Of a stretch of 36,249 nt of DNA, positions 5,143 to 30,381 are shown one piece after another; position 1 is the first letter of the stretch; every line of letters begins with the position of its first letter. The stretch covers positions 1-36,249 of the IMG/VR virus record IMGVR_UViG_3300028423_000524; one strand, written 5' to 3'. The notes beneath the pieces are model-generated. The model was not told where the DNA came from, searched no databases, and was given only the letters and a program-made list of their open reading frames with translations. This DNA is from a virus. Lineage: Duplodnaviria; Caudoviricetes. A program made the translations under genes and the position numbers.

Positions 5143-6872
5143 TGCCACGAATCCCCTACAATCCGACAAGGCAACCAGTGCGCCCGCAACGTCAGGGGCG
5201 CGTCAATGCGTCCGGTGCGATCAATGCGATTGGCCGGGAGGCGGCTTCTCAAGGTGAGGTTGTCCGCATGTTCCAGGGCGCAATCGGCACCGGGATGGCG
5301 GCGATTCGCGATGATCGGGAACGGGAAATCAACGCGGATCGAGTGGGCTTTGAAACAAAGCTGGCCGATGCGCAGTCCCGGCTAAAAATGGAGTTGGACA
5401 GCATCCCGGTGGCCGATGGCGTGGACGTGGAAGCGCAGACCCGCGAAATCATCGAGAAGGAATACGGCGCTCTACGCGAATACCTGAACGATCCGGGCAA
5501 CGTCCGGCACAAGTCCGCGATGAAGGAATTCGAGACGGTCCTGAGCCAAGCGGAGGCCACGGCGCAACGCGGGGCGGCTGAGTTTGTTTACGGCTACGAG
5601 AAAGACCGCTCGGCATCTCGGGGCGCGCGGATGGTTGAAATCGGCATCAAGACGCGCAACGAGGAAATGATTGAGCAAGGCATCTTCGTCCAGCACGAGG
5701 CGGGCAAGTTTGACGGGAACACTGCCGACACCGTTTATGAAAAATCGGTTGAGCAAATGAAACAGATCGCCGATCAAAACCGTCTGGAGCAATTTGAGTC
5801 TGCCAAGATGGACGGCGACTGGAAAGCGGCGAAAGAGATTGTGGACAGCCTGGAAGGTCCCGGCTGGACGAACGAGAAGAAGGCAAACTTCATTCGGGAG
5901 GAACGCTCTCGCGCGGCTTACAGCGAGACGGCTCTGGCGATCAAGCAAGCAGGCTCGCGTGGTGAATTTGAAGACCTGATGGAGCAGGTCGAGGAGCGCA
6001 AAGATTTGACCGCGCAAAACCGGCCTGTCCTCATGCGCTCGGTCAGCGCGGGGATGGCTCGCTTGGAGCGGGCGCAGATCAGCAACGAGCGGGCACTCCT
6101 GAAGGCTTTTGAGCGCGGTGAGGGCGACTGGTCGGAATACGAGCGGATGAAGCAATTGGACACCGCCGGGGGGCTTACCCCGGACGCTGAGAAGGCGCTC
6201 AAGCCGATTCTGGAAGCAGAAGAATCTCAGTATGAAATGAATGCCCGGTTCGAGCGCGACGAACAAAGCGTGGCCTACAAGTCGATGCTCGATGAGTTGG
6301 CGGCGGCTCGTTTCGGCAAAACGTCCACCGGGCGGATCGATACGAACGACCCGGACGGGAAGAAGATCACTCCGAAGCGGCGCAAGGAATACCAGTCGAT
6401 GCTTGATGAGATTAACGCGCTTCCGGTCGGCAGGAAGGCGAAGGCACGGCTGCTGGATGAATGGCTCCAGGTGCGGGCAACTGACTTGATTGATCCGGGA
6501 AAAGAAGACCCGCGCGGGTTTTTCAGTATCGCTGATGAAATTTCCGACGATGAGGCCAATTTTCGCGGGGAGCTTATTGGTGGCTATCGTGCATTGCTGG
6601 CTGATGGTTCTGTCCCGGAAGACTTCGGCCAGTCGGTCGAGCAGGATGACAAGCGCGTTGCCGAGTTTTTCCGCAAGACGAAAGACCCGACCCCGGAGCA
6701 AATCGAGAAGCTCCGTCAGGACGTGCTCGCACCACTTGAGGCTTCGACGATGCGGCGCAAGGCTCGGGGTGAGGGTGAATCGTCTCCAACGGAAATTTTA
6801 AGCAAGGAGGAATACGATGCACTTCCCCCGGGCGCACAGTTTATTTACAATGGAAAGGTGGGCGTGAAATGA
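5142..6872 (+). CDS. internal virion protein, gp15-like
   Basis: MPRIP start coupled to the upstream TAA; helical and charged; C-terminal EEYDALPPGAQFIYNG motif; synteny. Confidence 0.55.
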   Translation: MPRIPYNPTRQPVRPQRQGRVNASGAINAIGREAASQGEVVRMFQGAIGTGMAAIRDDREREINADRVGFETKLADAQSRLKMELDSIPVADGVDVEAQTREIIEKEYGALREYLNDPGNVRHKSAMKEFETVLSQAEATAQRGAAEFVYGYEKDRSASRGARMVEIGIKTRNEEMIEQGIFVQHEAGKFDGNTADTVYEKSVEQMKQIADQNRLEQFESAKMDGDWKAAKEIVDSLEGPGWTNEKKANFIREERSRAAYSETALAIKQAGSRGEFEDLMEQVEERKDLTAQNRPVLMRSVSAGMARLERAQISNERALLKAFERGEGDWSEYERMKQLDTAGGLTPDAEKALKPILEAEESQYEMNARFERDEQSVAYKSMLDELAAARFGKTSTGRIDTNDPDGKKITPKRRKEYQSMLDEINALPVGRKAKARLLDEWLQVRATDLIDPGKEDPRGFFSIADEISDDEANFRGELIGGYRALLADGSVPEDFGQSVEQDDKRVAEFFRKTKDPTPEQIEKLRQDVLAPLEASTMRRKARGEGESSPTEILSKEEYDALPPGAQFIYNGKVGVK

Positions 6873-9800
6873 CTTGGGACCCGTTTAAAGACGAAGACGC
6901 AAAACTGATTGAAGACGCGCCCGAATGGGACCCGTTTCGGGATGAAGGGGCGAAGCAGTTGGATGCCGACCCGGTGAAAGTAATCGACGTTGACCCGTCT
7001 GCATTTAAGGGGCGCGAGGGCTACGGCGAACCGGAAAAGGTCGCGGTGGCCGATTGGCTTGAGAAGAACCACAGCGTGAAGTTTGAGGACGGCGTTCGCG
7101 ACTACGAAGGCAAGGCAAAGGCGTTTGGCCTGTCCGGCGATCCGAAAGGCGACTTTGAGACGCTAAAGCACCGGGAGAGCACTCTCAATGCTCGTCGTCT
7201 CAAGTCTTTGAATCCCACGTTTGGAGGAACGCCGGAAGCTAAGGCTTCACTGGCAAAAATGGGGCGCGAGGGTGTTGAGTTTATCGACAAAGCTCCTCGA
7301 ACTGCGGCGGCGTCTCTTGCTCGATCCGGGTTTTCTACTGCGGAAGGGGTTTTTCGCGGAACCGGGGAAGTGTTTATGCGCTACACGCCGAACGGCTGGC
7401 TTTTAAATAAGCTTGGCTTGGACTTGCGGGACGCCACGGAACCCGTAGCGCAGTGGTTGAGTGAGGCCGAGGAAATCTCAGGCCGCGCTTACGGGGAGGA
7501 TCGAAGATTCCGCGAAACGCTCTTAGGCCAAACGATTCAAGGGGCTTCTTCGCTGGCTCCCCGTGCGGCTTCCGGGGGCGTTGGCGGCATGGCGGCGGGT
7601 GCGACCGGGGCAAAACTGGCATTTGGCGCGGCAGCGGGCGGCTTGTATTTCAATGAAGGTATTAGCGAGGCGGAATCTACAATCGGAAAACAGTTTCAAG
7701 ACTTCACCGAAGAAGAAAAGTCGGGGGCGGTTTTTACGTCTGTGGTGTATTCGGTCGTGGCCGGGGCGGTGGATCGCTACGCATTCGGAAAGATGGGCCT
7801 CGGCAAATTGATCGGCGGGAAAAATCCACAAGTAGGCAAGCGGACGGTTCGCCGGGTAATCGAAGGGGCGCTTTCCGAGGGCGGCGCGGAATGGACGCAA
7901 GGCCGGGTGCTTAAGCAATTTGCAGATTGGTTTCAAGATCAGGATCGTGAAGTATGGACGATGGACGCGCTAAAGGAGTCATGGCGAGATTTCCTTATCG
8001 GCGCGATTGTCGGCGGCGGTGTCGGCGGCGGCTCTAGGGTGATGGAAACCTTAGTTCAGGAAAGTGAAGCCGGGATGAAAGCAGAAATTGACGCTTTTAC
8101 TACGCGGCAACTTCCCTTCACGGAAAGCGGAGAATATAATCCGTTTTACCGTCCAGAGCCCCTTTTCGATAAAGATGGGAATGCTGACGCGAAAGTTCTT
8201 GAGCTTTCAAAACAAATTCGCGGCTTGGGCGATTCCGAAGAAGACCAGATCAAGAAGTCTGAGCTAGAGGAACAGTTAAGCGCACGACTCCAGCAACTTG
8301 CCGAAACCCGCGTGGACCCGACAAGCCGAGATGCGGCGCAACTGCGGAAATTTAACACAAAGCTGGCTATGGGCCTGAATCCGACCGAAGGCGCGACCCC
8401 GGCGGACTGGAAATTCATTGACGAGTATTATTCCGATGAGGAAGTCGGCGCTCACGTCGTGCAGGCGACTGGTTCCGAGGATTTGGTTCCGCTGGCTCTG
8501 GAAGCCAAACACGGCGACGAAGAGGCGCAAATGGAATACGTAAACCGAACGCTGGTCCCGGCGGATTCGGAAATCATGGTCGAGGGTGGGGTCACCCCGG
8601 AAGAAGCGGAAGCGGCCCACATGAATTGGGCACGCGAGGCCGGAAATGCAGAACAACGGCGAGAGCTAACCAAAGAAGAACTGGAAAAAGAAGCATTTGA
8701 GTGGGCGAAATCTTTTAGAGGTGATCGCCTTTTTGAAGGCCAAAGTATTGAAGACTTAACAAATCAATCACTTACATTTGAAGATGATTTGAATGCTCTT
8801 AGAGATCAGGGCGTTCCCGAGTGGAAAATTGAAAGGTTTGCTTTTGAAGCAATTCAGGCGGCTGGCTACGATCCCACCGACCCGGATAATGCGCCTAGTA
8901 AAATGGCTATCAATGGGCGGAACGAATATGAGTTTCGTCGCGGCGTCTGGCGCGATGTGTCTAAGCTATTCCGGGGCGCAAACGCTTTGACTGTTTTCCA
9001 CGAAGTGAGTGAAGGCCATTTAAAACGAGAGATAAACGAGGGGAATCTTGATTGGTATGCAGTGGCAACATGGCGCGAGATGATGGGTGACGGGCCAAGT
9101 GCCGGTCAAGTTGATCTGGAAAGTGCCGCCGAGCAAAAAAAATTGACGGAGTGGACAAGTGAGCAGGTTGAGTCATGGCTTTTGGGTAAAACGAAGGCTT
9201 TAGAGCGTGAAGGGCAAATGCCGAAAACCTTCAGGACGTGGTTGACTGCGGTTTTTACTGAAATTAAGCATCTGCTCAAGCGGGCCGCGCAACTCAAGGG
9301 CATGGATCGCCGGGGCGAACTAGACCCTGAGTTTAAAGCGTTTCTTGAGCGGTCGAACGGGCTGGATGAAAATTTCCTGCGCGAACGGCTGGAACCTCCG
9401 GCAGAGAGCGTTTCCGGCGATACGAGCGTCACGCTGGCCGAATACCTCTCCGAGAGTCCGGGACTGACAAAGACCGGGCTTCCCCGGCCTGACATGCTAG
9501 CCGATCCGCAATGGCGGACTGAAGTTGAACGTCTCTGGGAGTTCACCGGGAAAAACTGGAAGCGTTACCCGAAGCATGATCCGGCAAATCTCGATGACTT
9601 GGCGATGGGGATGCGCTCGGCGGGCTTTGATGTTCGCACGGTGGACGATGCCTTGCAATTGGTCGAGCGTTCACTGTCCGGCGAGGAAGTGCGTTCGTTT
9701 GGCGATTCGGCCTTCGAGGGCTTTGATTCCGGGCGTGATGCTGCGGGGAATGCGGCGAGTTATCAGCTTCAATACCGGATCAATCATCAACCACACGAAG

Positions 9801-12730
9801 AAGACACGCGATTAGATGATTTGAGTGAAATGTTTGGTGATGACATTTACGGTCAAAATGCTCTACAGTATTACGGAGCCGGACAAGATGGTGAAAGCGA
9901 AGCAATTCAGGTTTTTCAACGGGTTCGCGGCAAGCCTGATGCGAATGTCACAGTCTATCGAGTCGTTCCTGACTTCGTGGATGAGATCAACCCTGGCGAT
10001 TGGGTGACGGTCTCAAAAAAGGCTGCGGAACAAATGAATTACCCTGAGTTCCTTGGGCGCAACGATCAAGGCAACGAGCAAAAATCAAAGATCGTTAGCA
10101 AAGTAGTTAAGGCCGAGGAAGTGCGCTGGCCGGGTGATTCGCTTTTAGAGCAAGGTTATTTCCCTAGCTATTCACTTGGCCGGGCTAAAGTGAAGACAAA
10201 CCCGGAAACGCAAACCTACCCGACGAAGGACGGCGTTCTGATCGGTCCGGCCACCTATTCGCTGAAAGCCTTCCACGGCACTCCGCACAAGGTGGACAAG
10301 TTCAAGACTGAGAACATCGGCACAGGCGAAGGGGCGCAGGCTTACGGGTATGGGCTTTACTTTGCGGAGAATGAGGAAGTGGCGAAAGACTACCAGAATG
10401 TTTTAAGTGGGCGCTCGCTTAAAGCAAAAGACGGGCGCCCGTTCCTTGACTTGGTGGAGCGACCGGGGGCAAAAAAAATTCTTAACGAAATTTCATTTGC
10501 GTTAAGTTTAGGGAAGAATTTTGACAACGAAATAGCGGTTTTGGAAAATAGAATCGAAACCGCTAGTAGGTTTATTGGTAGAGACGACAATCCGGCCGAT
10601 AACGAGAAATTTGTCGAGGATGCAAAGGAGGCACTTGAAGCACTTAAAGAGCTTGAGGCTGGACCAGGAGGCTCCCTCTACACCGTAGAGCTAAACGTCG
10701 AGCCCGACGAACTGCTTGATTGGGATGCGCCGTTGAGCGAGCAAGGCCAGCTAATCGAAAAATTAAGAGAGCTTGTTGTTGGGGATATAGATGAAAAACT
10801 CGAATCTATAGAAGAACGCTTTGAAGAACATGAGGACATGCCAATGGGCGACAATGCCCGCAGGTGGATAGATGCCTTAGTTGAGGACGTTTATGACCTT
10901 GATGCGCTTGAGGACGCAAAAGCAGTTGATGAAGCGCTGGCCGATGAATTAATGGAAGTTATTCAAGATTTAGATATTTTGAATCCATTGGCGACCGGAT
11001 CGCAGGCTTATTCGGCAATTCAAAGCGTTATCAAAAGCAACGAACAGGGAGCTTCCGAAGCCCTTGCCTCCCTCGGCATCAAAGGAATCCGCTATCTGGA
11101 CGGCGCAAGTCGTAGCGACGGCGAAGGCTCCCGCAACTACGTCATTTTCAACGAAGAAGACATCACCATCACCGAGGAAAACGGGGAGCCTGTGAGCTTG
11201 GCGACGTATCAGCTAAAGCGCATCACCGAAACGCCCGAGTTTCAAAACTGGTTCGGCGACTCCAAGGTGGTCGACGAGAATGGCGAGCCGTTGGTGGTTT
11301 ATCACGGGACGGATGCGGACTTTTCTCAATTCGATGCTAATCGTGGGATCGGGGTTCACCTTGGGACAATTGACCAAGCGGAAGGGGTGGCTGATGAGAT
11401 TGCCGATGAGGGCGGCACGGCTGCCATTTATCCGGTTTACGCTTCGATAAAAAAATCAATCCGCCTTCGTGATGAAGGTGCGTGGGAAGGTAGGACAGTT
11501 GTCAACATGGTCAATGAGATCGCGGGGACCAGCTTGAGGCCATCGGCAAGCTCCCGCGACATTCGCGCGGCTTTGCAAGAATTGGGGTATGACGGCATCG
11601 TTTATGAAAACAGGTTCGAAGGTGATGAGTACGCGGACTCTTATATCGCCTTCGACCCCACCCAAATCAAATCCGCAACGGGCAACCGTGGCACGTTCGA
11701 CCCGGACGATCCGAGGATCACTTACAGTATGGTCCGCATCGACGACCTTGGCGGCGATCCCAACGAAACTTACACCGTTCGCGAGCGAACCCCGGAAGAG
11801 CGGGTGCTCGCTCAAAAGCTCCGCGAGTTTCGCACGGATACCTGGCTCACTCAGGCGCAAAAGAACCGGATCAACAAGACCCCTGCGGACGGGAGGGCGA
11901 AGCTTCGGGCAGAGTTCGAAAAAGACTTTAAGCGTGAATTGAAAGTCCTCCAGACGAAGGCCACTGAATCGCGCAAGCGTCAACGTCTCCAGCAGTCCGC
12001 AGAGCGCAAGATTGCCAAGGTCGAGGCCCGGCGGCTGGAGCAAATCAAAACCCTGCACGATCAGGGTGAGGACGTGACGGCCAAACTGGAGGAACTGGAC
12101 CGGATCAAGAAGGGGCTCCCCACGGCTGTCCGGCACCGCCTGGGGGGTGAAGTGCAGGTTTCCCGGCGCAAGACCCGCATGGGCAGGCAGAACGAAGTCA
12201 ACCGGCGGCTTGTGCGGGCGCGTGAGCTGGCCGAAGGACACGAAGCGACCCGGCGGAAGGCTTGGCTGCGGCGGACGTTGAACAGGTTCGGGCATCGCGG
12301 GCAGAAAGCTCAAAAGCAGGCCGACGAAATGACAGCCTATGTTCGCGACCTGCTTCAAGTGGCCGGATACGCAGCCAACTCCGATACAGTTGAGCGCGTT
12401 AAAGAAGGTGTCCCGAAACCGGAAACCCTCACGGATGCAGAGTATGAGCAAACTATTGTAGACTTTCTTGGAATACTACAGCCTCACCGCCGGGACTTTG
12501 GACGGATTGAGGCCGCGTATTTTGCAACACAAGACCTTATCCGTTCTGGGAAATATGAACGGGCACAGTTCCGAGAGGCGCGAAAGGCTGAAGCTCAAGA
12601 ACGTATCGAGAAAGGGCAGGAAATCGTTTTGAGGGGCAAGCCGACGCCAGACGCAAACGAGCTGAAAGCAAAAAATCTTAGCCGGACGAAGCTTGATCGA
12701 AGTATGTCGAATATTCGTTGGGTATTTTGA
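6869..12730 (+). CDS. large internal virion / polyvalent protein (gp16-like) with ART-like modules; probably continues into 12693..14654
   Basis: 1953 aa. Contains FQNWFGDSKVVDENGEPLVVYHGT, FHGTPH..KF....IGTGEGAQAYGYGLYF and VYRVVP....INPGDWVT blocks typical of phage polyvalent proteins, plus a degenerate FHEVSE zincin-like motif. Confidence 0.75.
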   Translation: MTWDPFKDEDAKLIEDAPEWDPFRDEGAKQLDADPVKVIDVDPSAFKGREGYGEPEKVAVADWLEKNHSVKFEDGVRDYEGKAKAFGLSGDPKGDFETLKHRESTLNARRLKSLNPTFGGTPEAKASLAKMGREGVEFIDKAPRTAAASLARSGFSTAEGVFRGTGEVFMRYTPNGWLLNKLGLDLRDATEPVAQWLSEAEEISGRAYGEDRRFRETLLGQTIQGASSLAPRAASGGVGGMAAGATGAKLAFGAAAGGLYFNEGISEAESTIGKQFQDFTEEEKSGAVFTSVVYSVVAGAVDRYAFGKMGLGKLIGGKNPQVGKRTVRRVIEGALSEGGAEWTQGRVLKQFADWFQDQDREVWTMDALKESWRDFLIGAIVGGGVGGGSRVMETLVQESEAGMKAEIDAFTTRQLPFTESGEYNPFYRPEPLFDKDGNADAKVLELSKQIRGLGDSEEDQIKKSELEEQLSARLQQLAETRVDPTSRDAAQLRKFNTKLAMGLNPTEGATPADWKFIDEYYSDEEVGAHVVQATGSEDLVPLALEAKHGDEEAQMEYVNRTLVPADSEIMVEGGVTPEEAEAAHMNWAREAGNAEQRRELTKEELEKEAFEWAKSFRGDRLFEGQSIEDLTNQSLTFEDDLNALRDQGVPEWKIERFAFEAIQAAGYDPTDPDNAPSKMAINGRNEYEFRRGVWRDVSKLFRGANALTVFHEVSEGHLKREINEGNLDWYAVATWREMMGDGPSAGQVDLESAAEQKKLTEWTSEQVESWLLGKTKALEREGQMPKTFRTWLTAVFTEIKHLLKRAAQLKGMDRRGELDPEFKAFLERSNGLDENFLRERLEPPAESVSGDTSVTLAEYLSESPGLTKTGLPRPDMLADPQWRTEVERLWEFTGKNWKRYPKHDPANLDDLAMGMRSAGFDVRTVDDALQLVERSLSGEEVRSFGDSAFEGFDSGRDAAGNAASYQLQYRINHQPHEEDTRLDDLSEMFGDDIYGQNALQYYGAGQDGESEAIQVFQRVRGKPDANVTVYRVVPDFVDEINPGDWVTVSKKAAEQMNYPEFLGRNDQGNEQKSKIVSKVVKAEEVRWPGDSLLEQGYFPSYSLGRAKVKTNPETQTYPTKDGVLIGPATYSLKAFHGTPHKVDKFKTENIGTGEGAQAYGYGLYFAENEEVAKDYQNVLSGRSLKAKDGRPFLDLVERPGAKKILNEISFALSLGKNFDNEIAVLENRIETASRFIGRDDNPADNEKFVEDAKEALEALKELEAGPGGSLYTVELNVEPDELLDWDAPLSEQGQLIEKLRELVVGDIDEKLESIEERFEEHEDMPMGDNARRWIDALVEDVYDLDALEDAKAVDEALADELMEVIQDLDILNPLATGSQAYSAIQSVIKSNEQGASEALASLGIKGIRYLDGASRSDGEGSRNYVIFNEEDITITEENGEPVSLATYQLKRITETPEFQNWFGDSKVVDENGEPLVVYHGTDADFSQFDANRGIGVHLGTIDQAEGVADEIADEGGTAAIYPVYASIKKSIRLRDEGAWEGRTVVNMVNEIAGTSLRPSASSRDIRAALQELGYDGIVYENRFEGDEYADSYIAFDPTQIKSATGNRGTFDPDDPRITYSMVRIDDLGGDPNETYTVRERTPEERVLAQKLREFRTDTWLTQAQKNRINKTPADGRAKLRAEFEKDFKRELKVLQTKATESRKRQRLQQSAERKIAKVEARRLEQIKTLHDQGEDVTAKLEELDRIKKGLPTAVRHRLGGEVQVSRRKTRMGRQNEVNRRLVRARELAEGHEATRRKAWLRRTLNRFGHRGQKAQKQADEMTAYVRDLLQVAGYAANSDTVERVKEGVPKPETLTDAEYEQTIVDFLGILQPHRRDFGRIEAAYFATQDLIRSGKYERAQFREARKAEAQERIEKGQEIVLRGKPTPDANELKAKNLSRTKLDRSMSNIRWVF

Positions 12731-14682: not shown

Positions 14683-14976
14683 ATGGCACAAATCACTTCA
14701 ATTACCGCCAACGGCGGATCGAGCACGTCCGCATGGGCGGGTGGCAAGGGTAACTTTTCGCTTTACGGCGACTTCGGCGGGGGCGCGGCCCGGTTAGAGT
14801 ATTCTTTTGACTCCGGCACGACCTGGATTCCGATGGAAGCGCCGACACTCGGCGAGCTTGGCATCACCCGGAATAAGGGCATCAACTTCGAGCTTCCGGC
14901 CTGCGACCTTCGGGTTTTCGTTGTCCGGGCCGACACCGGTAGCCTGAGCCTGACCGCGAACATCGAGGCGATTTAA
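14683..14976 (+). CDS. small beta-rich virion/tail-associated protein
   Basis: G.FGG....LEYSFDSGTTWIP motif; TAATG coupling to the tail spike gene. Confidence 0.55.
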   Translation: MAQITSITANGGSSTSAWAGGKGNFSLYGDFGGGAARLEYSFDSGTTWIPMEAPTLGELGITRNKGINFELPACDLRVFVVRADTGSLSLTANIEAI

Positions 14977-17333
14977 TGGCTAAGTCGGCAGTCAGTTCAG
15001 TGGTCAAATCGGTGGTTGCGTCGGCGGTCGGTCCGGCGGGAGGCATCACCTACGACAAGACCGACCGCGCCCTCGACCTCGGCAACCTGACCGCGCAAAC
15101 CGCGCCGGACCTGAGCGGCAACGACAACGACGCCACGCTCGCCAGTAACGTCTATTTCAGCACTGACGGCAGCCAAGGCAAGGGCATCCAAGCGGACTGC
15201 TCGGCGGAGGGCAGCGGGACGTATCGTTTAAAAGGCAACTGCGGCGCCGACTCAGTGGGGCAAAAATTTGCGCAAATCAATTCCTCCGAGGATGGAGAGG
15301 GCCGGATTACAATTGGTTCCGGTGGGGTTGACGAGTGGATTGAGTTTACCACGACCTCCATGACGGGCGTTCCTAACAACGTGGTTGTTGGGTGGTCGGA
15401 TCAGACCGGAACCTATTTCCCGATGGACTGGAGTGACATCCGCCTACAAAAACAGGTCGGCTCAGATTGGGTAACCGTCGCCCACTGGCAAGGCATCGAC
15501 AGCGAGGACGCCTCCCTCGACGGCTACCCCTGCCTCGACTCCAGCGGCAACGGCTACCACGGCACCCACAGCGCAGGCGTGGCAGGCGGCGGCGGCGAGA
15601 CGGGCGGCCTCCAGACAATGGGGGTGGATTGGAATCGCTATTCTTACGGAGCGGGTCAGTTAATACCAGATCCGCAAGATGGAGACCGACTGGTGTCCTC
15701 TATGGGGCAGGCTTTGGTTTGTCCGAATCTTATAGACGATAATGTGATAAATGACGAACTGGGAACAGATGTGTCAGGTTGGGCGAACTCGGATGCAACA
15801 TACACTCAGGGCAGCGAGTTTGCTACCTTCTCGGCCAATGTTCCACCAAAATCAGGATCAACGAGAAAGGCGATTCCTCAACTAAATGGAGGCAACCACA
15901 TTTTTTATTTAAAAGTAGGGGCAGATGATGTATCCGGTAGTGGTGTAAATTTTGAACTTCGAGATAGTGTCGGCGGCAACTCGACAGTAATAGTCACTCT
16001 TGGCTACAACTGGACAACCTTTTCCTATGAGCAGCAACGAATCTCGATGGGGGTCAGAAAATCTGGTAGCTTAGTTGGCATTGCTGGGCCTTCGGTAGAT
16101 TTTAGCGCAAGCCCAGCGAGGATTGCCGTTGTCTACGACAAGACTTACACTTCCTTTTCTTTATATATTTTAGAATCGGGATTATGGAGATTCTATGGTG
16201 GCGTAGTTAGTGATCGTCCGTCAATAGACAGCTTGGGAATATCATCAGGGGGCGGCGATTCAGCCGATGCATACGTCTACTATTTACTTAATGCAAAGCC
16301 AAATATTGTTAGCACTGGGTCAAGTATTGTTGCTGGTCACAATTCATTCGACCCTAATCCTGATTTTTACGGTGGATTAGATGATTATAATTCGCAATAC
16401 CAATACCACTTACCCGACTCGCTTTACCCTAGATTCAGAAATACTTTAGTATTCAACTCGGGCGTAGGGGGAGAAGACACAGGGGAACTTTTAACTAGAC
16501 TGCCCACCGTAATATCCGAGTCGGACGCGCGGTTGTTTTTAATGGGGCCAAACATTAATGATTACGGAAGCGGGTTCACTCTACAAGAACGCACGGACAA
16601 TATGACGGATGCCGTTACGTTGGTTGAAGAGTCGGGCGCAACACCAGTCCTTGTAAATGAGGTTTATCCAAACGGGGCAAACGGGGCTTACTACAAAGAA
16701 TGGTGGGACAATTATCGAACACAGACAGGCGCAAGTGCTTATATTAACCCAATGACTGTCCTTGCTGATGTTAATGGATATGTGGACTCCGATTATGTTA
16801 CGGATGGAGTTCATCCGAATGTTATGGGTTATCAACTGATGGGCGAATACGTTAGGGACAACCTGCCTGCTGTAGGGTTATCAGACGCCCTCGGCAACCC
16901 GCTCGACTTCACCCGCCCGAACGCCCGAGTCCTCAACGGCGCAGTGCCGGGCAGCTACGCGACCGTAGCCGACGACGCGACCCGCGACAGCACCAACGTA
17001 TTTGCCGCGTGGGTTTACCACGATGGCACGGACGGCGTGATTGCGGACTACTCGGACGGAGCGGGGACGGTGGACATTGAGATTGTCAGCGACGCGATTG
17101 TCACGACCGGGCTGACGACCCCTGGCGCATTTGTGGGCAACAAGACGACCGCAATGGCCAACACGGACGCCGTGACGGAGGGGTGGAACTACATCTTTGT
17201 GACCTTTGCGGACTTTAGCCCAACCGCCGCAACCCGCTACTACGGACGACAAGGGCACATCATCGAATACACCGAGAGCAAGACCCTCGCTCAAGCTGAG
17301 AAGAACCGCAAGGCCCTTAAATCTAAATATTAA
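14976..17333 (+). CDS. tail spike/fibre with SGNH/GDSL esterase domain
   Basis: SGNH blocks TGSSI (I), NSGVGGE (II), GPNIND (III), DGVHPN (V); DLSGNDN/DSSGNGYHGT motifs of LamG-like tail proteins. Confidence 0.7.
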   Translation: MAKSAVSSVVKSVVASAVGPAGGITYDKTDRALDLGNLTAQTAPDLSGNDNDATLASNVYFSTDGSQGKGIQADCSAEGSGTYRLKGNCGADSVGQKFAQINSSEDGEGRITIGSGGVDEWIEFTTTSMTGVPNNVVVGWSDQTGTYFPMDWSDIRLQKQVGSDWVTVAHWQGIDSEDASLDGYPCLDSSGNGYHGTHSAGVAGGGGETGGLQTMGVDWNRYSYGAGQLIPDPQDGDRLVSSMGQALVCPNLIDDNVINDELGTDVSGWANSDATYTQGSEFATFSANVPPKSGSTRKAIPQLNGGNHIFYLKVGADDVSGSGVNFELRDSVGGNSTVIVTLGYNWTTFSYEQQRISMGVRKSGSLVGIAGPSVDFSASPARIAVVYDKTYTSFSLYILESGLWRFYGGVVSDRPSIDSLGISSGGGDSADAYVYYLLNAKPNIVSTGSSIVAGHNSFDPNPDFYGGLDDYNSQYQYHLPDSLYPRFRNTLVFNSGVGGEDTGELLTRLPTVISESDARLFLMGPNINDYGSGFTLQERTDNMTDAVTLVEESGATPVLVNEVYPNGANGAYYKEWWDNYRTQTGASAYINPMTVLADVNGYVDSDYVTDGVHPNVMGYQLMGEYVRDNLPAVGLSDALGNPLDFTRPNARVLNGAVPGSYATVADDATRDSTNVFAAWVYHDGTDGVIADYSDGAGTVDIEIVSDAIVTTGLTTPGAFVGNKTTAMANTDAVTEGWNYIFVTFADFSPTAATRYYGRQGHIIEYTESKTLAQAEKNRKALKSKY

Positions 17334-18865: not shown

Positions 18866-19600
18866 ATGCCACGAATGAACAGACGCAGCTACCAGCGCAC
18901 CTTCAAGGGGCGCGTCCTCGATGCTTCACTCGAAGCCGACCCGCGCGACTACCGCCTGATGATCGCACCGCCGCAACCCGGCGAGTTGCAAAGCCGCAAA
19001 TGGGAATGCCCCGTCCGCCTCGACCAGGGGCGTGAAGGCGCTTGTGTGGGATTCGGCGGGGCGCACCATATCGCCTGCTTTCCCTGGCCGCAAAAGCTGA
19101 CCGAGGCCATTGCCCGCTTTTTCTACGAGGGGGCGCAGGACTACGACGAGTGGTCGGGCTCCGACTACGAGGGAACCAGCGGCAACGGGTTGATGACCTT
19201 CCTGCACCGCTCCGGGGTAATCGGCAACTACTACCGGGTGCGCTCCCGGATCGAGCTTGACCGTCTTCTCAGCGTCAAGAGCCCGGTGTCCGGTGGCTTC
19301 CCGTGGCGCGAGGGCATGTTCGAGGCAGACCGCAACGGCTTTGTCCGCTACGAGGGCGAGGTCAAAGGCGGGCATTACGTGTGCGTCAACGGCGTCGATT
19401 TCGAAAACGAGTTTTACTGGATCGTCCAAAGCTGGGGCCGCCATCACGGCATCGACGGCGAGGTCAAAGTCTCGTTTGCCGATATGGACAAGATGATCGG
19501 CGAGGGCGGTAATATCTACTGGTTCGAGGAGAAGTCTATCGGGCCGATCCGAAACCGGATGAAGAAGGAAAAGAAACCCTGGTGGAAGTTTTGGGCATGA
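18866..19600 (+). CDS. papain-like (C1) cysteine peptidase
   Basis: DQGREGAC (Gln and catalytic Cys), GGHYV (His), VQSWG (NSWG-like); ends in KKPWWKFWA. Confidence 0.8.
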   Translation: MPRMNRRSYQRTFKGRVLDASLEADPRDYRLMIAPPQPGELQSRKWECPVRLDQGREGACVGFGGAHHIACFPWPQKLTEAIARFFYEGAQDYDEWSGSDYEGTSGNGLMTFLHRSGVIGNYYRVRSRIELDRLLSVKSPVSGGFPWREGMFEADRNGFVRYEGEVKGGHYVCVNGVDFENEFYWIVQSWGRHHGIDGEVKVSFADMDKMIGEGGNIYWFEEKSIGPIRNRMKKEKKPWWKFWA

Positions 19601-19904: not shown

Positions 19905-20323
19905 GCCGCCGAATCACAAACCACTACAAGCCTGGTCTCAAAGCCCGCGCCCGGTTCCACGATCCCCTGCACATCCTGGCCCACGATGTCCCGATCAAAG
20001 ACCGTCCCTGGGAGCTCCTTACCGATTTTCGCTTCTACTCCGCCATCCTCGGCAAAGTCATCACCGTGCCCGAAGGTTACCGCACCGACTTCGCCAGCGT
20101 CCCCCGCTTTTTCTGGCGCATCATTCCGCCGTATGGTCGCTACGCCAAAGCCGCCGTAGCCCACGACTACCTATGCGACCAGCGCGGCCGCACCGGCATC
20201 GACAGCGCCACCACCCACAAAGTCTTCCGCGAGGCCATGGAGGTCCTAAAAGTTCCCGCCTGGAAACGCGCCCTTATGTATCGCGCCGTCAAATGGTTCG
20301 GGCCAAAGTTTCCGGCTCAATAG
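19901..20323 (+). CDS. DUF1353 family protein
   Basis: ITVPEGYRTDFASVPR...AAVAHDYL...F.EAM....V...KR.LMY.AV..FG signature. Confidence 0.85.
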   Translation: MSRRITNHYKPGLKARARFHDPLHILAHDVPIKDRPWELLTDFRFYSAILGKVITVPEGYRTDFASVPRFFWRIIPPYGRYAKAAVAHDYLCDQRGRTGIDSATTHKVFREAMEVLKVPAWKRALMYRAVKWFGPKFPAQ

Positions 20324-21266
20324 CAAAATAAGCCTCGGCCTCGGCCTTTGTCGCAACGCCCCGGTAGTGCTGATACATCATCCCCGGTCCCGATTCATGC
20401 CCGGCGATCAGCATCGTCCGCGAAATATCGCCATAAAGTGCCAGATGGTAAGTGAAAAAAGAGTGCCGGCAAACGTCCTGACTCCAGCGGCCAATCGCCG
20501 CCTTCGCTATCCGCGTGGCTTGGCGCGATCTTCCGGGGGCCACCGGGCTGCTTGACTTTCCGGGCTGTAACCATTGCCAAAGGTTTTCCGGCAAGCCTTC
20601 CAGTGGCCTACCCGTCCGGGTTTTCGACTGGTCGGCGTTGATGCGGATAATGCGGTTCTCGGTGTCCACCTGACGCCACAAGAGCGGCGGTTTGTGCTGC
20701 GAGCGGATCTCACTCGGGCGAACTCCCGCGAAAAGCATCAGGGCCAGCATCGGCGCATAAGTTCCGGCGGATCGCATGACTTGTTCCGCTTCGGCGGGGG
20801 TCAATATGTCAATCCGGCGCTCGGTCTTTGCCGCGTCGTCGTTGATCCCGGTGGCCGGGTTCTTGGACACAATAGGCGGCTCCTGCTTCGTCGCCCATGA
20901 GAAGCAAACCGAAATTGCCCTGGCGTAGCCCTGCGCCGTCGCCGGGGACACGGGCAGGGCTTCGATCCAAGCGCGAATTTCCGGGCGCGTCACGCTGTCC
21001 GCAACGCGGTCTCCGAAAGTGTCGGCGAATACGTCGAGCTTAGTCTGGTAAAAGGCCGTCGTCGCCGGGGAGAGGTTTTTGCGGATAGACCGCCGGATAA
21101 AGCCGTCGATCATCCGACTGACCGGCTGCGGGTCGATCTGGCCCCGAAGGCCGACGGCACGGAGCGCGGCCTGTTCCAGCGTCATGCCTGAGCCTTCCAG
21201 CGCAGTGAGGGCGGCGCGGGCGTCCATTCGCTCGGCGGGGGTTAAAGCTCTGTCTTTTCGTGGCAT
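20289..21266 (-). CDS. int: tyrosine recombinase (phage integrase)
   Basis: FAGVRPSEI (Arg), SKT (Lys), DVCRHSF, AGH, HY (Tyr); adjacent to a tRNA-derived attP. Start could be the TTG at 21287. Confidence 0.9.
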   Translation of the reverse strand: MPRKDRALTPAERMDARAALTALEGSGMTLEQAALRAVGLRGQIDPQPVSRMIDGFIRRSIRKNLSPATTAFYQTKLDVFADTFGDRVADSVTRPEIRAWIEALPVSPATAQGYARAISVCFSWATKQEPPIVSKNPATGINDDAAKTERRIDILTPAEAEQVMRSAGTYAPMLALMLFAGVRPSEIRSQHKPPLLWRQVDTENRIIRINADQSKTRTGRPLEGLPENLWQWLQPGKSSSPVAPGRSRQATRIAKAAIGRWSQDVCRHSFFTYHLALYGDISRTMLIAGHESGPGMMYQHYRGVATKAEAEAYFAIEPETLARTI

Positions 21267-21438
21267 GTTGTCAAAATTTGGCAACACACCAGACGGAAAT
21301 CTAAGGTGTGTGGCATTGTGGATTATAGTCTAGTGCGTCGGCTAAAAAGCGGTTCAAGATGGGGTAATATGAGTAACAATGGAAACTTACGTCGAACATT
21401 GGAATACTTAGAATTGAGGCGGAAACCCGCTAAAACAC

Positions 21439-25519: not shown

Positions 25520-26217
25520 TGGCTGGCGACTGGATAAAATTTGATAAGGCGACCTTGGAAAAGCCCGAGGTCGCCTTGATCGCCGACGAGCTTGGCATTG
25601 ATGATGACGCGGTGGTCGGGAAATTACTTCGGATTTGGGCTTGGGCGGATGAACATTGTCACGCTGACGGCGTGACATCGGTCACGCTCATGTCACGACT
25701 AGACCGTCGCGTCGGCGTGACCGGATTTTGTCAAGCGATGCTAAATGCTGGTTGGCTGATGGTGGACAATGATCGACTGCAATTCCCGAATTTCGGCCGG
25801 CATAACGGAAACCCCGCAAAATCAAGGGCTTTGGCAACTGAGCGCAAAAAAGAGTCACGGTCAAAGCGTGACAAGAGTCACGGTCAAAGCGTGACAAAAA
25901 CGCGACCAGAGAAGAGAAGAGAAGAGAAGAGTATAGACTCTCATAATCGCGCGCGAAGATCACCAAAGGACGTGAAGGAGTGTATCGACTACGCTGCGAT
26001 GATCAGCGTGACGGAGGACGACGCTCGCGGGTTTTACGATTCGCAGGAATCCGGCGGATGGACCCGTGGTGGCCAACCGCTGAAAGACTGGCGGGCGTCA
26101 ATGCGGACGTGGAAACGGAACGGATGGCTCCCAAGCCAAAAGAAAGCGAAGGGATTCAACAACAACCAACAGGCCGACCGCATGAGCGACGGCTACGACA
26201 GCAAGGAGGCAATATGA
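25519..26217 (+). CDS. phage replication initiator
   Basis: MAGDWIK....L.KPEV..IA..LG....AVVGKL.R.W.WAD N-terminus, C-terminal FYD..ES.GW....P.KDWRA..RTW, and internal iterons. Confidence 0.8.
   Translation: MAGDWIKFDKATLEKPEVALIADELGIDDDAVVGKLLRIWAWADEHCHADGVTSVTLMSRLDRRVGVTGFCQAMLNAGWLMVDNDRLQFPNFGRHNGNPAKSRALATERKKESRSKRDKSHGQSVTKTRPEKRREEKSIDSHNRARRSPKDVKECIDYAAMISVTEDDARGFYDSQESGGWTRGGQPLKDWRASMRTWKRNGWLPSQKKAKGFNNNQQADRMSDGYDSKEAI
25658..25931. repeat. putative replication origin iterons
   Basis: GTCACG-N7-CGTGAC at 25658, 25854 and 25877; the last two lie in a perfect 23-bp tandem repeat (25850-25895). An AGAAG-repeat purine tract follows. Confidence 0.7.
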
Positions 26218-26960: not shown

Positions 26961-27414
26961 GCGAAAATCAAGCCCCCTACAATTCGACGCGGACATCCTC
27001 CGGAGAAAAGGATTCGTCCAGCGACCTGATGGCCGGTGGGAAAAACCCGCTGCTGGTGTGGATCGATTGCAAGGTCGAGAGCACCCCGAACAGGCGGGAG
27101 CATTGGACCAAAACCCGAAGCAGGAACCGAAGCCAAAAACTGGCCGTAAGAAAAGTGCTCGCCGGGTTAAATCCGCCGGAGGTTCCCGGCGAAAGCAAGA
27201 GCACACGATGATTGTGACACTCACCTGCCATGTGCCGAGATACTTTGATAGCGACAACGCGACGATTGCGACGAAAGCGATCCGGGACGAGATCGCGGAC
27301 TGGTTGGGCGTGGATGACGGCGACAGGCGGGTTCTCTGGGAAGTTGACCAAACACTCACGCGGGGCGTTCCTGGCGTTTGTGTGGCGATTAGAAGGGCGG
27401 CGGATGCAGGTTGA
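26950..27414 (+). CDS. RusA-like Holliday junction resolvase; N-terminal frame ambiguous (26950 vs 26957)
   Basis: D.DN....K..RD......GVDD catalytic pattern lies in 27208..27414. Confidence 0.6.
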   Translation: MSNERKSSPLQFDADILRRKGFVQRPDGRWEKPAAGVDRLQGREHPEQAGALDQNPKQEPKPKTGRKKSARRVKSAGGSRRKQEHTMIVTLTCHVPRYFDSDNATIATKAIRDEIADWLGVDDGDRRVLWEVDQTLTRGVPGVCVAIRRAADAG

Positions 27415-27838
27415 CCGGACAGAACTCAACGCGGCGGTGGCCGGGGCGCACAAGCGGGGCATCTTGACTGAGCGGCTGGCCGTGCTCGCGATGGGTATTG
27501 CTCGGGGGTATCTGGCTTCGGAGAAGTTTAAGGGTTACAGTGAGGCGGATCGCGAGGATATTTTTGGAGCGTGGACTGTGCGTTTTGTTAAAACGTGGTC
27601 GCGATTAGATCCGGAGAAAAACTGCCATGCTTACATCACGCGGGGGGTCGAATTGGCATGGAAGGATCACGCCCGGAGCACGTCGAGGCGACTCAGGCGG
27701 GAACACGCTAAGGCAGAGGCGATGTTGGCGGAAGAGACGGACCGGATTCAGCGGTTTGTGCGATCCTACGAAGCTGAGTTGGGCGACGGGCCGGGGATTG
27801 TGCCGATGGAGGATTTTGAGAGGAAAATTAAACACTGA
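27404..27838 (+). CDS. T4 gp55-like small sigma factor (region 2)
   Basis: IA......KF.GYS...RED.........W...DPEK...AYIT.....AW resembles gp55 region 2; last backbone early gene before the accessory region. Confidence 0.65.
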   Translation: MQVDRTELNAAVAGAHKRGILTERLAVLAMGIARGYLASEKFKGYSEADREDIFGAWTVRFVKTWSRLDPEKNCHAYITRGVELAWKDHARSTSRRLRREHAKAEAMLAEETDRIQRFVRSYEAELGDGPGIVPMEDFERKIKH

Positions 27839-27957
27839 GGACAGGCACGAAGCGAAACAATTACAACCAACGAAAGAAAACCAATGAGTGACGAAAATGC
27901 AAAATGTAACGACCAACCCGCGAGCGAGCGGAGTTGTCCTGATCCGGCTGGTTATGC
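27827..27957 (-). repeat. attC-like site 1 (131 bp)
   Basis: Plus strand: AAC-actga-GGACAGGCAC ... GTTGTCCTGATCC-ggctg-GTTATGC. The loop holds ATG 27884. Confidence 0.75.
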
Positions 27958-28183
27958 TCCCTTCGTGCCTCCGTTTCACTACCGGACCGAGCTGCGCTAC
28001 ATAGCAGATTCGAGAGGCGCGGTCATGGCTGATCTTAGAATGTGGCCTGCGCTGACGGGCTACAAAATCAAAGACCAAGAACGAATCGGGAATTGGATCG
28101 CGGAGTCTTTGAGCGACTGCGCTTTTGCGGACCGAGACGGTGATAACCTTCAGCATAACGCTGAGATGGATAATGGCGAGTAG
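27884..28183 (+). CDS. cassette 1 hypothetical protein
   Basis: Starts in the site 1 loop and stops in site 2. Confidence 0.65.
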   Translation: MSDENAKCNDQPASERSCPDPAGYAPFVPPFHYRTELRYIADSRGAVMADLRMWPALTGYKIKDQERIGNWIAESLSDCAFADRDGDNLQHNAEMDNGE

Positions 28184-28281
28184 ATCGCCTGTGTGACTTT
28201 AACAATCAACGAAAGATAGAATATGCCTAATGATACAGAAAACGCCAATGCCTCGCCATTGATCCAATCGACTGGTTCGCA
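28153..28281 (-). repeat. attC-like site 2 (129 bp)
   Basis: Minus strand: TGCGAAC-CAGTC-GATTGGAT-C-AATGGCGAG ... CTCGCCATT-ATCCATC-TCAGC-GTTATGC, with two extrahelical bases. Confidence 0.8.
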
Positions 28282-28732
28282 ATCGATTGGCTGGATGGGG
28301 TCAATCCGAGACAAAGACGCTGGGCATGTAAATGTGCACCAAGGCTGTGCCTCGCTGTCTTGGGGTATGATGGAAAGGGTGCGAGCAAAATTTCCAGATG
28401 ATGAAGAATTTGAAGTTTATATTTCAATTCGTCCTGAGAACGTAGAGGACAGGCACGAAGTGAGGAACGAACGAAGTTGTCCTGATCCGGCTGGTTCTCG
28501 ACCGAAGGTTAAGGACTGTCGATACTGGAACAAACTGCCACTACTGGCGACAAGCGATTGGATTGTGAGTGCTCTTCTAGCTCAAGAGCTAGAAGATGAG
28601 AACGAACGCTACCGAAAAGCATTAGAGGAAATTGCTGGCAACGAATCGGGCGTAAACGCTGAACGGGCAGACGGTATTGCAATCGCCGCATTAGCTTTCG
28701 AGAACACTGAGGACAGGCGCACAGGAGAATGA
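28223..28732 (+). CDS. cassette 2+3 in-frame fusion, hypothetical protein
   Basis: Starts in the site 2 loop, reads through site 3 (ENVEDRHEVRNERSCPDPAGS) and stops in site 4. Confidence 0.65.
   Translation: MPNDTENANASPLIQSTGSQSIGWMGSIRDKDAGHVNVHQGCASLSWGMMERVRAKFPDDEEFEVYISIRPENVEDRHEVRNERSCPDPAGSRPKVKDCRYWNKLPLLATSDWIVSALLAQELEDENERYRKALEEIAGNESGVNAERADGIAIAALAFENTEDRRTGE
28435..28500 (-). repeat. attC-like site 3 (66 bp)
   Basis: TGAGAAC-gtaga-GGACAGGCAC ... GTTGTCCTGATCC-ggctg-GTTCTCG. Confidence 0.8.
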
Positions 28733-28807
28733 CTATGAGTGACGAACCAGAAACGACGAAACGAATGGCGGCGCGATTCCCGTGTTGCCTGATCCGGCTG
28801 GTTCGCA
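28699..28807 (-). repeat. attC-like site 4 (109 bp)
   Basis: CGAGAAC-actga-GGACAGGCGCAC ... GTGTTGCCTGATCC-ggctg-GTTCGCA. The loop holds AGGAG and ATG. Confidence 0.78.
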
Positions 28808-29058
28808 GAGCCGGGCCGAATGTGTGCTGGGTAATGATGATGGTTTTTATTCTGACCGCAAACAGCCGAGCCGCTGGGGTTGATGCGCTCCTAGTGGCGA
28901 TCTTATCCGTGCGGCAGAAGTGTTTTTTTTACGAGGCTCATGTTGCGCTCCGAGTGCTCTTGCATGATGCGGGCAATGGAAATAACTCATTTGTGAAGCT
29001 CTTGGCCCCATTATGTGGCTGGCCCCATTTTGTGGTCTTGCCTTCGATTGCGCCTTGA
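28729..29058 (+). CDS. cassette 4 ORF, probably truncated; C-terminal part doubtful
   Basis: Good start in the site 4 loop (ATG 28729 or 28735), but the sequence after ~28810 looks non-coding and no matching closing core was seen. Confidence 0.3.
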   Translation: MTMSDEPETTKRMAARFPCCLIRLVRRAGPNVCWVMMMVFILTANSRAAGVDALLVAILSVRQKCFFYEAHVALRVLLHDAGNGNNSFVKLLAPLCGWPHFVVLPSIAP

Positions 29059-29099: not shown

Positions 29100-29990
29100 A
29101 TGCCACTAAGTAAGACACATATTTCTGCAATATCTCGGATGTTCTCTGCAGGCGTCTTGCATGAACTGGCGAATACGGGGCGTTCGCCGCTGTTTGCTCG
29201 TTTGTTTTGCCAGTCCGGTTTGTCGGAAATGCAAAAAGGGGAGACGCCAACCGTGGGTGCAGCTTATGAAGCTGCTTTCTCAGTTTTGCGTCAATCAGGT
29301 ATTCGCGACGAATACATTTATCGTGCCGCATTGACTCATAATATCCTGCTCGGCCGTCATTCCCTCAATTCAGCTAGTATGTTGACTGAGTTTAGGGCCG
29401 GTAAATGTAAGGTCGACTTGGTCATTTTAAACGTAACAGGGACGGCCTACGAAATTAAATCTGACCGAGATTCATTGTCTCGTCTCAGCAATCAGCTGCT
29501 AAATTACCGTAAGGTTTTCTCGAAAGTTTACGTGATTGCCGGTAAGTCGCATGTGCAAGAAATTCTGGAGTCGACCCCTGCTTCGATAGGAGTTCTCAGC
29601 TTGTTGAGATGGAACCGGATTCATACTGTTAGGGAGGCGCAGGAGGACTTTGATGCTTTATGTTCAGATGCGATATTTGATTCGCTCCGGGTCGAAGAGG
29701 CTCGGCAACTCTTGCGAAATTTGGACGTCTCGGTGCCTGATGTTCCGAATATGCATCTCCGTAGTGTGATGCGTGAGTTATTTGCGGATCTTTCCACACG
29801 CAAGGTGCATGAAGAAATGGTTTCTGTTCTTAAGGAAAAGCGCAATTTGGCATCTCTGGCATCAGCGGTTGAAAAGTTGCCTGCCGCTCTGCAACCTGCC
29901 GTCTTGTCTCTAAAGCTTCGTCCGACCAGCCGTGAACGGTTGGTTTCAGTCATGGGCACACCAATGGACGAGGCCTTAACTTGGGCTTAA
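29100..29990 (+). CDS. sce7726 family protein (PD-(D/E)XK nuclease-like)
   Basis: R.EY.Y.......LLGRHSL....ML.EFR.G..K.DLVILN.....YEIKS.RD...RL..Q...Y...F..VYV signature; followed by an sce7725-like start. Confidence 0.8.
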   Translation: MPLSKTHISAISRMFSAGVLHELANTGRSPLFARLFCQSGLSEMQKGETPTVGAAYEAAFSVLRQSGIRDEYIYRAALTHNILLGRHSLNSASMLTEFRAGKCKVDLVILNVTGTAYEIKSDRDSLSRLSNQLLNYRKVFSKVYVIAGKSHVQEILESTPASIGVLSLLRWNRIHTVREAQEDFDALCSDAIFDSLRVEEARQLLRNLDVSVPDVPNMHLRSVMRELFADLSTRKVHEEMVSVLKEKRNLASLASAVEKLPAALQPAVLSLKLRPTSRERLVSVMGTPMDEALTWA

Positions 29991-29997
29991 CTTAAAA

Positions 29998-30381
29998 ATG
30001 TATTATCCTTATTTCCGAGGTAAGCAGTTTGAACTGATCGCAATTCGAGAGACAGCGGCTCTGATGGCTGCATCTGGATTCGTCCCCATTATCGAACCGG
30101 TTCGCGAGGCCATGAATGGCTTGAGACGAGCTCTGGAAGCGATTTGCGAAGCAAACGGGAGCGCTATATTGGTCGTGAATCCGGACAATGGCGATCACGC
30201 TGGAAACCATCTACATGCGCTCCAAAAATTCAGGAGCATATTTTTTGAGACTTTCCCGAAAGGTGAGAAGGATGATCCGGATCGAATTGTAATTACGAAT
30301 ATGAAAAGCCGCTCGAGAATCACAATTGATGAGGGGCCAGTTGAGACAATTCGCCCGCCGATTTGGGATTCTTTAATCTAA
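29998..30381 (+). pseudogene. truncated sce7725 family gene fused to an unrelated 3' fragment
   Basis: MYYPYFRGKQFELIAIRE...PIIEPV...VNP..GD is the sce7725 N-terminus. Recognisable similarity ends near 30205 and the ORF is only 127 aa. Confidence 0.65.

Follow-up and report, generated by a model that had tools for sequence, protein, structure and literature searches.

Integron-type gene cassettes in back-to-front orientation in a tailed phage, probably built by a phage-type integron integrase

Clusters of attC sites without intI (CALINs) have been described in phages. According to the available text of Qi et al. 2023 (PMC9892861), there are 17 phage CALINs, IntI1 recombined five of the six sites tested, and the arrays of TJE1 and PH101 are typical. 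The TJE1 array has the conventional orientation. The bottom strands given for PH101 in Table S3 of the same study, in the available version, map to the minus strand of KR534323 (75851-77987; L262), which is the strand of all 14 annotated genes, and two 57-bp sites of PH101 are nearly identical. Antisense attC sites of PH101 are already known to work with IntI1, a circumstance left unremarked in the available text of PMC9892861, which also describes no dedicated phage IntI clade and no antisense genes. The locus analysed here resembles these phage CALINs (TJE1, PH101, and P12002L, as presented there) in being an attC cluster without intI, and the PH101 sites are likewise antisense. However, the PH101 sites are 57 to 77 bp long and intergenic, whereas three of the sites here are 109 to 131 bp long and contain the start and the first codons of a gene. 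The weight of the present window is limited, since integrase-less phage attC clusters have already been published.

With classical integrons, as set out in the available sections of PMC4889954 and PMC8946536, the locus shares the R''-L''-L'-R' architecture, an unpaired base at position 4 of L'', 5-base spacers, the G|TT crossover, and units composed of a site and a gene. The folded bottom strand is bound by IntI and cut in the R' core (PMC8946536, available sections), and both processes, folding and recombination, are promoted if this strand serves as the template for lagging-strand synthesis (PMC5371416, available sections). The locus differs from classical integrons in that no intI, attI, or Pc was identified, the genes are on the bottom strand, and the site heads its gene instead of ending it. 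The inverted-integrase integrons of the Treponema group (PMC4889954 and PMC13323075, as far as their available text goes) have an intI that points the same way as the cassette genes, which is also the case in the complete phage loci described below. However, the intI of the Treponema group is on the attC strand, whereas in the phage loci intI and attC have the regular geometry and the genes are inverted. A search of literature that included few subscription papers returned no description of cassettes that are antisense and have their starts within the site, nor of a phage IntI clade.

The window, i.e., the whole stretch of 36,249 bases that was analysed, is the complete record of a tailed phage (linear class; estimated to be 96% complete) that is described as temperate. 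Nearly all of its genes are carried on the + strand, in the order tail and internal virion genes, ordinary integrase, RecT, exonuclease, replication initiator, helicase loader, sigma-like gene, array, and terminase and head-tail genes. The + strand is G-rich across the genome, with a skew of 0.15 at 25.7 to 30.4 kb. Direct and inverted repeats, which are likely to be origin iterons, cluster within the replication initiator gene to the left of the array, at 25656-25907, with hexamer repeats at 25658-25890. A promoter scan for Pc gave 2 promoter-like matches compared to 3.0 expected by chance, and a terminator scan was likewise at chance level. Among the virion genes, the one at 6869-12730 encodes a 1953-aa protein with the ADP-ribosyltransferase domain of polyvalent proteins (PF18760, residues 1469 to 1610) and a ParB-like segment; a probable tail protein with a GDSL esterase domain is encoded at 14976-17333 and a papain-like peptidase at 18866-19600. 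The features of the array and its borders are listed in Table 1.

Table 1. Positions of the attC-type sites, cassettes, and genes of the array and its borders
Feature	Position	Strand	Remark
attC-type site 1, 131 bp	27827..27957	- (top strand)	AAC 27831-33, L' 27839-45, L'' 27938-45, extra base 27942, GTT 27951-53
attC-type site 2, 129 bp, other L-box family	28153..28281	-	AAC 28157-59, GTT 28275-77
attC-type site 3, 66 bp, internally shortened copy of site 1 family	28435..28500	-	AAC 28439-41, GTT 28494-96
attC-type site 4, 109 bp	28699..28807	-	AAC 28703-05, GTT 28801-03
Cassette 1, 326 bp, AA|C crossover to AA|C crossover	27833..28158		8/8 flank pairing
Cassette 2, 282 bp	28159..28440		6/7 flank pairing, not discriminating
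Cassette 3, 264 bp	28441..28704		3' end common to seven other phage contigs
Cassette 4, beginning only	28705..28898		two public contigs cease matching at 28898
Cassette 1 gene, 99 aa	27884..28183	+	start in loop of site 1, stop within site 2
169-aa ORF, cassettes 2 and 3	28223..28732	+	start in loop of site 2; read through shortened site 3
Sigma-70-like phage gene, left border of array	27404..27838	+	Pfam Sigma70_r2, phrog_234; homologs 56-99% identity
sce7726-family gene and truncated sce7725-family gene	29100..30381	+	NCBIfam NF033832, NF033831

A sequence-only reading of this DNA had proposed four attC-like hairpins, and their coordinates, their cores, and the AAC-to-AAC spacing of 326, 282, and 264 bp all proved to be as it gave them. 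On the + strand, each site has the layout AAC-N5-arm(7)...arm(8, one extra A)-N5-GTT. Read on the minus strand, all four become R''-N5-L''(8 nt, unpaired base at position 4)...L'(7 nt)-N5-R', and since the unpaired base lies at position 4 of L'' in every site, the polarity is that of an attC top strand on the minus strand. The bottom strand has an A as the unpaired base in each of the four sites, whereas that of class 1 attC sites is usually a G. We searched the window with a descriptor modelled on a canonical attC top strand, namely AAC and N5, a box of 8 bases whose fourth base is unpaired, a loop, the complementary box of 7 bases, and N5 and GTT. With 7/7 L-box pairs, and also with 6.5/7, there were four matches in the whole window, and these were the four sites, all on the minus strand and within 981 bp. 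In 60 dinucleotide shuffles, the number of matches per genome was 0.38 +/- 0.52. The proposed layout, with its attC polarity on the minus strand, is confirmed. As a positive control, the descriptor recovered all three published TJE1 attC sites. The array is thus a CALIN, with four attC-type sites in 981 bp and no integron integrase nearby.

Chance hairpins would be consistent with the predicted folding, in which z-scores for the sites as reconstructed in the circle range from -0.35 to -1.1 and energies are no lower than those of shuffled sequences. However, not one of the 120 shuffled strands had even three sites in 1 kb, and the relatives described below break at the cores; chance is refuted by these two results, and we give it practically no weight. 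The probability of the recombinogenic fold in sites 1 to 4 was 0.014, 0.053, 0.69, and 0.11 for the bottom strand and 0.006, 0.008, 0.72, and 0.033 for the top strand. The three long sites thus favour the bottom strand 2.5- to 6-fold at low absolute values (0.014 to 0.11), and the recombinogenic fold has a high probability only in the short site 3. The loops of the sites, 27 to 92 bases in length, are not alignable. An Rfam search gave no matches, and a relaxed descriptor scan found no further site, so that the far end of cassette 4 was not located.

The core flanks had been read as pairing better across each unit than within a site. At positions 4 to 7, pairing across the units is 4/4, 3/4, and 4/4, and within the sites it is 0/4, 0/4, 3/4, and 2/4. 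This claim stood for the two outer junctions (8/8 each); the middle one (6/7) is not discriminating, because the flank of site 4 fits equally well (3/4).

The usual cassette convention, with the gene on the top strand and upstream of its attC, does not apply to the array. In the part of cassette 3 that is shared, 15, 19, and 27 nucleotide differences alter 3, 6, and 8 amino acids, respectively, of the + frame and introduce no stops, and every other frame of this part changes more. The + frame is therefore the conserved frame in cassette 3, and coding is on the bottom strand of attC. Sites 1, 2, and 4 have start codons in their loops (27884, 28223, and 28729/28735), and the loop of site 4 also contains AGGAG. 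With a conserved frame on the bottom strand and starts inside the sites, the idea that the genes are antisense to attC-like sites was substantiated. Stop codons are found just within the next site (27838, 28183, and 28732); the first of these, that of the sigma-like gene (27836-27838), is in the spacer of site 1. The start codons inside the sites, the shortening of site 3, and the variation also at the GTT side or in an ORF are features of the array that go beyond the earlier reading.

Site 3 contains no start codon in frame, and in an alignment with site 1, ~65 loop bases are absent from it. The 169-aa ORF is likely to have arisen when an internal deletion in site 3 fused the genes of cassettes 2 and 3, because in the database protein P0003 the cassette 3 body (99% identity) follows a full-length leader of the site 1 type that has a start of its own. 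The body of cassette 1 represents a phage module that recurs, without the site 1 leader, in four other proteins (12 matches to the body; 7 long proteins of 402 to 5314 aa were left out). No function was assignable to the cassette genes; the cassette 1 gene has no family in Pfam, PHROGs, or NCBIfam, and an Atlas search with its protein returned nothing above 0.8. The cassette 4 ORF (28729-29058) exits site 4 in a frame other than that of the site 1 and site 3 leaders, and the frame shared with these leaders stops at 28883; the cassette 4 gene may be frameshifted.

The 3' end of cassette 3 was found in seven other contigs (six of the seven loci from one search and one locus from another), and the alignment is invariant up to AAC 28703-05. 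Beyond this AAC, five of the seven diverge within one base, and the other two share 5 to 6 more bases. As L226 is almost a copy of L227 and both are similar to L228, the contigs represent about five independent neighbours. The DNA after the shared AAC is another minus-strand site in four contigs (L228, L229, L230, and L232) and a 27-base stretch followed by an IntI in L225. Moreover, five database proteins open with the leader encoded by site 1 and continue, from the GTT core on, with five unrelated bodies. In contigs of three public runs, similarity to the array is mostly limited to the site bodies: one contig spans 27934-28166 with different DNA on either side, some match the site 2 body alone, and six end at 27831. 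Of 18 loose ends among the matches listed (48 others aside), 5 are no more than 1 base and 4 no more than 7 bases from a core, and the other 9 are located elsewhere. Cassette 3 is also mosaic inside the ORF, near 28595, and one body occurs with different leaders at the GTT side. The prediction that relatives vary exactly at AA/C was thus borne out only in part: identity ends at AAC 28703-05 in seven contigs, but breaks also occur in the ORF and at the GTT side. The change of neighbours at the crossover, together with the cross-unit core pairing, identifies a gene cassette array, one that has other breakpoints too. No circle joints were present among the contigs of the three runs, where two joints were listed, neither of them circular; contigs cannot reveal rare circles.

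In L226 (2139-2270) and L229 (94-200), one and the same site family stands at the head of different gene bodies; the GTT core is altered in L226, and this site may be fixed in place. DNA methyltransferase genes occur as back-to-front cassettes in L230 (150-1109) and L240 (1385-1882). Searches for the site sequences themselves gave little. An exact 16-base scan of viral contigs yielded 39 matches, none within an attC, and a 20-base site pattern had no match in viral contigs. A paired-arm pattern matched 53 viral loci and, in 6 of 64 parts of the genome set, at least 120 genome loci. Just 5 of the loci matched were preceded by an AAC, and no array of the family seen in the window was among them. 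A search for close relatives through the sigma gene returned none, one through the large terminase returned 12 loci at 21 to 32%, and one through the L225 IntI alone returned none. There was no blastn match of the array to GenBank phages.

Homologous recombination by RecT and the exonuclease could have shuffled the sites as shared translation-start modules, the attC look being an inherited decoration. Genes for RecT and an exonuclease VIII-like protein are present, sites 1, 3, and 4 have repeats of 17 to 32 bp in common, and some of the mosaic points are within ORFs or at the GTT side, all of which would fit. However, site 2 comes from a different sequence family and yet has the same geometry, and flank pairing across units and breaks at AAC before unrelated sites would not be expected from such shuffling. 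We regard this explanation as quite improbable; RecT probably adds to the variation and does not explain the borders.

No match to TIGR02249 was found in the phage record (estimated completeness, 96%), and a profile search based on 58 IntI-like proteins of phages detected no IntI remnant in the genome, touching only the ordinary integrase (E, 0.004). The absence of an IntI from the window, as read earlier, was corroborated by both searches, and the intI gene of a complete integron is lacking. The array is thus a real CALIN in a back-to-front form and not a complete integron. The phage's own tyrosine integrase (20289-21287) is the sole tyrosine recombinase found in the genome and might act on the sites, but besides lacking a match to TIGR02249 and scoring so poorly with the phage IntI profile, it falls far outside the IntIs in the tree (best identity, 26%), lies 6.5 kb from the array, and belongs to an ordinary prophage integrase family (phrog_1). 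Its involvement appears very improbable.

The IntI of L225, located 27 bases past the AAC of the cassette 3 homolog, has 326 aa and scores 256 bits with TIGR02249 (cut-off, 265; E, 5e-76). In this contig (3000-4340 region), terminase, portal, and capsid genes surround the IntI. Its best two matches among 151 genomes were L239 and L240 (phylum of G001, a Lentisphaeria bin). L239 (1339-2828) is in a Mu-like phage contig, L240 (106-1960) is beside a phage adenine methylase, and both have antisense cassettes with 8/8 cross-pairing. The L225, L239, and L240 integrases form a single clade (support, 100/99) apart from the host IntIs.

An alignment of these three IntIs used as the query retrieved 74 viral loci (L263-L336), some of which are duplicates. 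Upstream of intI in the 74 loci, 116 strict sites are on the minus strand and 1 is on the plus strand (222 kb), and downstream there are 3 in 281 kb. Where the sequence extends at least 1 kb upstream of intI, 34 of 63 loci have a site. Downstream AAC flank pairing of at least 7/8 was seen for 105 of the 107 unique sites beside viral IntIs. In the 105 cassette bodies, the + frame is open over at least 90% in 79 and the minus frame in 45, and the longer open frame is + in 64 and minus in 18; a start codon lies within the site in 68/105. Because the viral IntI loci hold arrays of the same back-to-front type, that of the window represents a layout common among phage integrons, here without the integrase. 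Its L-box family was not detected in any of the 74 loci, where there was one weak blastn match. The arrays of the viral IntI loci have up to about eight sites, and that of L329 looks conventional, with the minus frame open.

The sequence-only reading had assigned the gain and shuffling of the cassettes to a host IntI acting in trans. A chromosomal integrase of the host could have done so, the first cassette entering via an attG-type site. IntI-like genes occur in 35 of 151 genomes of the sampled phylum (E <= 1e-40), and the three tested exceed the TIGR02249 cut-off. According to the available parts of the literature, IntI1 recombines phage attC sites (PMC9892861), insertion outside att sites has been reported (10.1101/2022.09.11.507474), and CALINs are described as trans-mobilised (PMC11389934). 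On the other hand, the host-type integrons of the same sample carry sense cassettes wherever a site was seen (L234, L245, L249, and L257). A host with the same attC family was not found: among 401 genomes searched with a 16-base site motif, one matched, and that match was not an attC. Furthermore, back-to-front arrays and the cassette 3 homolog adjoin phage-borne IntIs. We therefore consider a host IntI unlikely, although it is the strongest of the alternatives. What stood of the earlier assignment is the cassette array itself, with its attC architecture and AA|C borders; its choice of enzyme is probably incomplete, as a phage-type IntI is the better candidate.

The units are very probably IntI-made cassettes. 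A phage-type IntI is likelier than a host IntI because back-to-front arrays adjoin the short IntI of phages, in one case with a cassette 3 homolog. As the supplier of the enzyme, we thus take a phage-type IntI to be probable, a host IntI considerably less so, and any other source improbable. Accounting best for the array, integron-type cassettes with genes on the strand opposite to the bacterial convention were probably built by a phage-type IntI that was later lost or was borrowed; from position alone, we infer that intI may have been lost in cis. In the mechanism that we propose, the + (bottom) strand would fold as single-stranded DNA, and an IntI tetramer would cut at AA|C, so that a unit could exit as a circle or enter at attI or at another attC. 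Each unit would consist of the C of one AAC, the site body with the start signal, and the gene body, up to the next AA. An incoming gene would be read by the rightward transcription of the phage, and its last codons and stop would come from the next site. A rightward replication fork is suggested by the GC skew and the position of the replication gene, because the + strand is G-rich and the hexamer repeats sit to the left of the array; the + strand would then be the lagging-strand template. The back-to-front build may in this way keep the genes co-directional with replication and the recombinogenic strand on the lagging-strand template.

More tentatively, and with somewhat less confidence than in the origin of this array, we suggest that tailed phages may run an integron lineage of their own, with a short IntI, back-to-front cassettes, and the site serving as the translation start, and that integrase-less phages may borrow the enzyme from co-resident phages. 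If so, each exchange would yield a new gene with leader and tail swapped. Such a cassette design would be fitted to a one-directional phage genome, and sites that overlap start codons would bear on the origin of cassettes and of small phage genes. Mosaics of phage accessory genes are usually credited to illegitimate or RecT-driven recombination; the array and the 74 viral IntI loci suggest that the exchange of cassettes at specific sites is among the causes.

To the right of the array, no attI was identified, nor was one found elsewhere in the 36-kb window. A candidate at AAC 30380-82 was rejected, as it falls outside the best 8 of 1062 AAC positions in a comparison with the attI-like stretch of L225. 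Also discarded was the idea of an empty site in which the sigma gene once ran over AAC 30380-82 to a stop overlapping the next start, which the C termini of 11 sigma homologs did not support. The sce7726/sce7725 pair has a lower GC content and, by position, would occupy the slot where complete phage integrons have attI and intI. The NF033831 match covers residues 2 to 75 of the 312-position model, and the remainder of the ORF (29998-30381) is unrelated and ends at TAAC, which suggests a deletion joint in this sce7725-family ORF.
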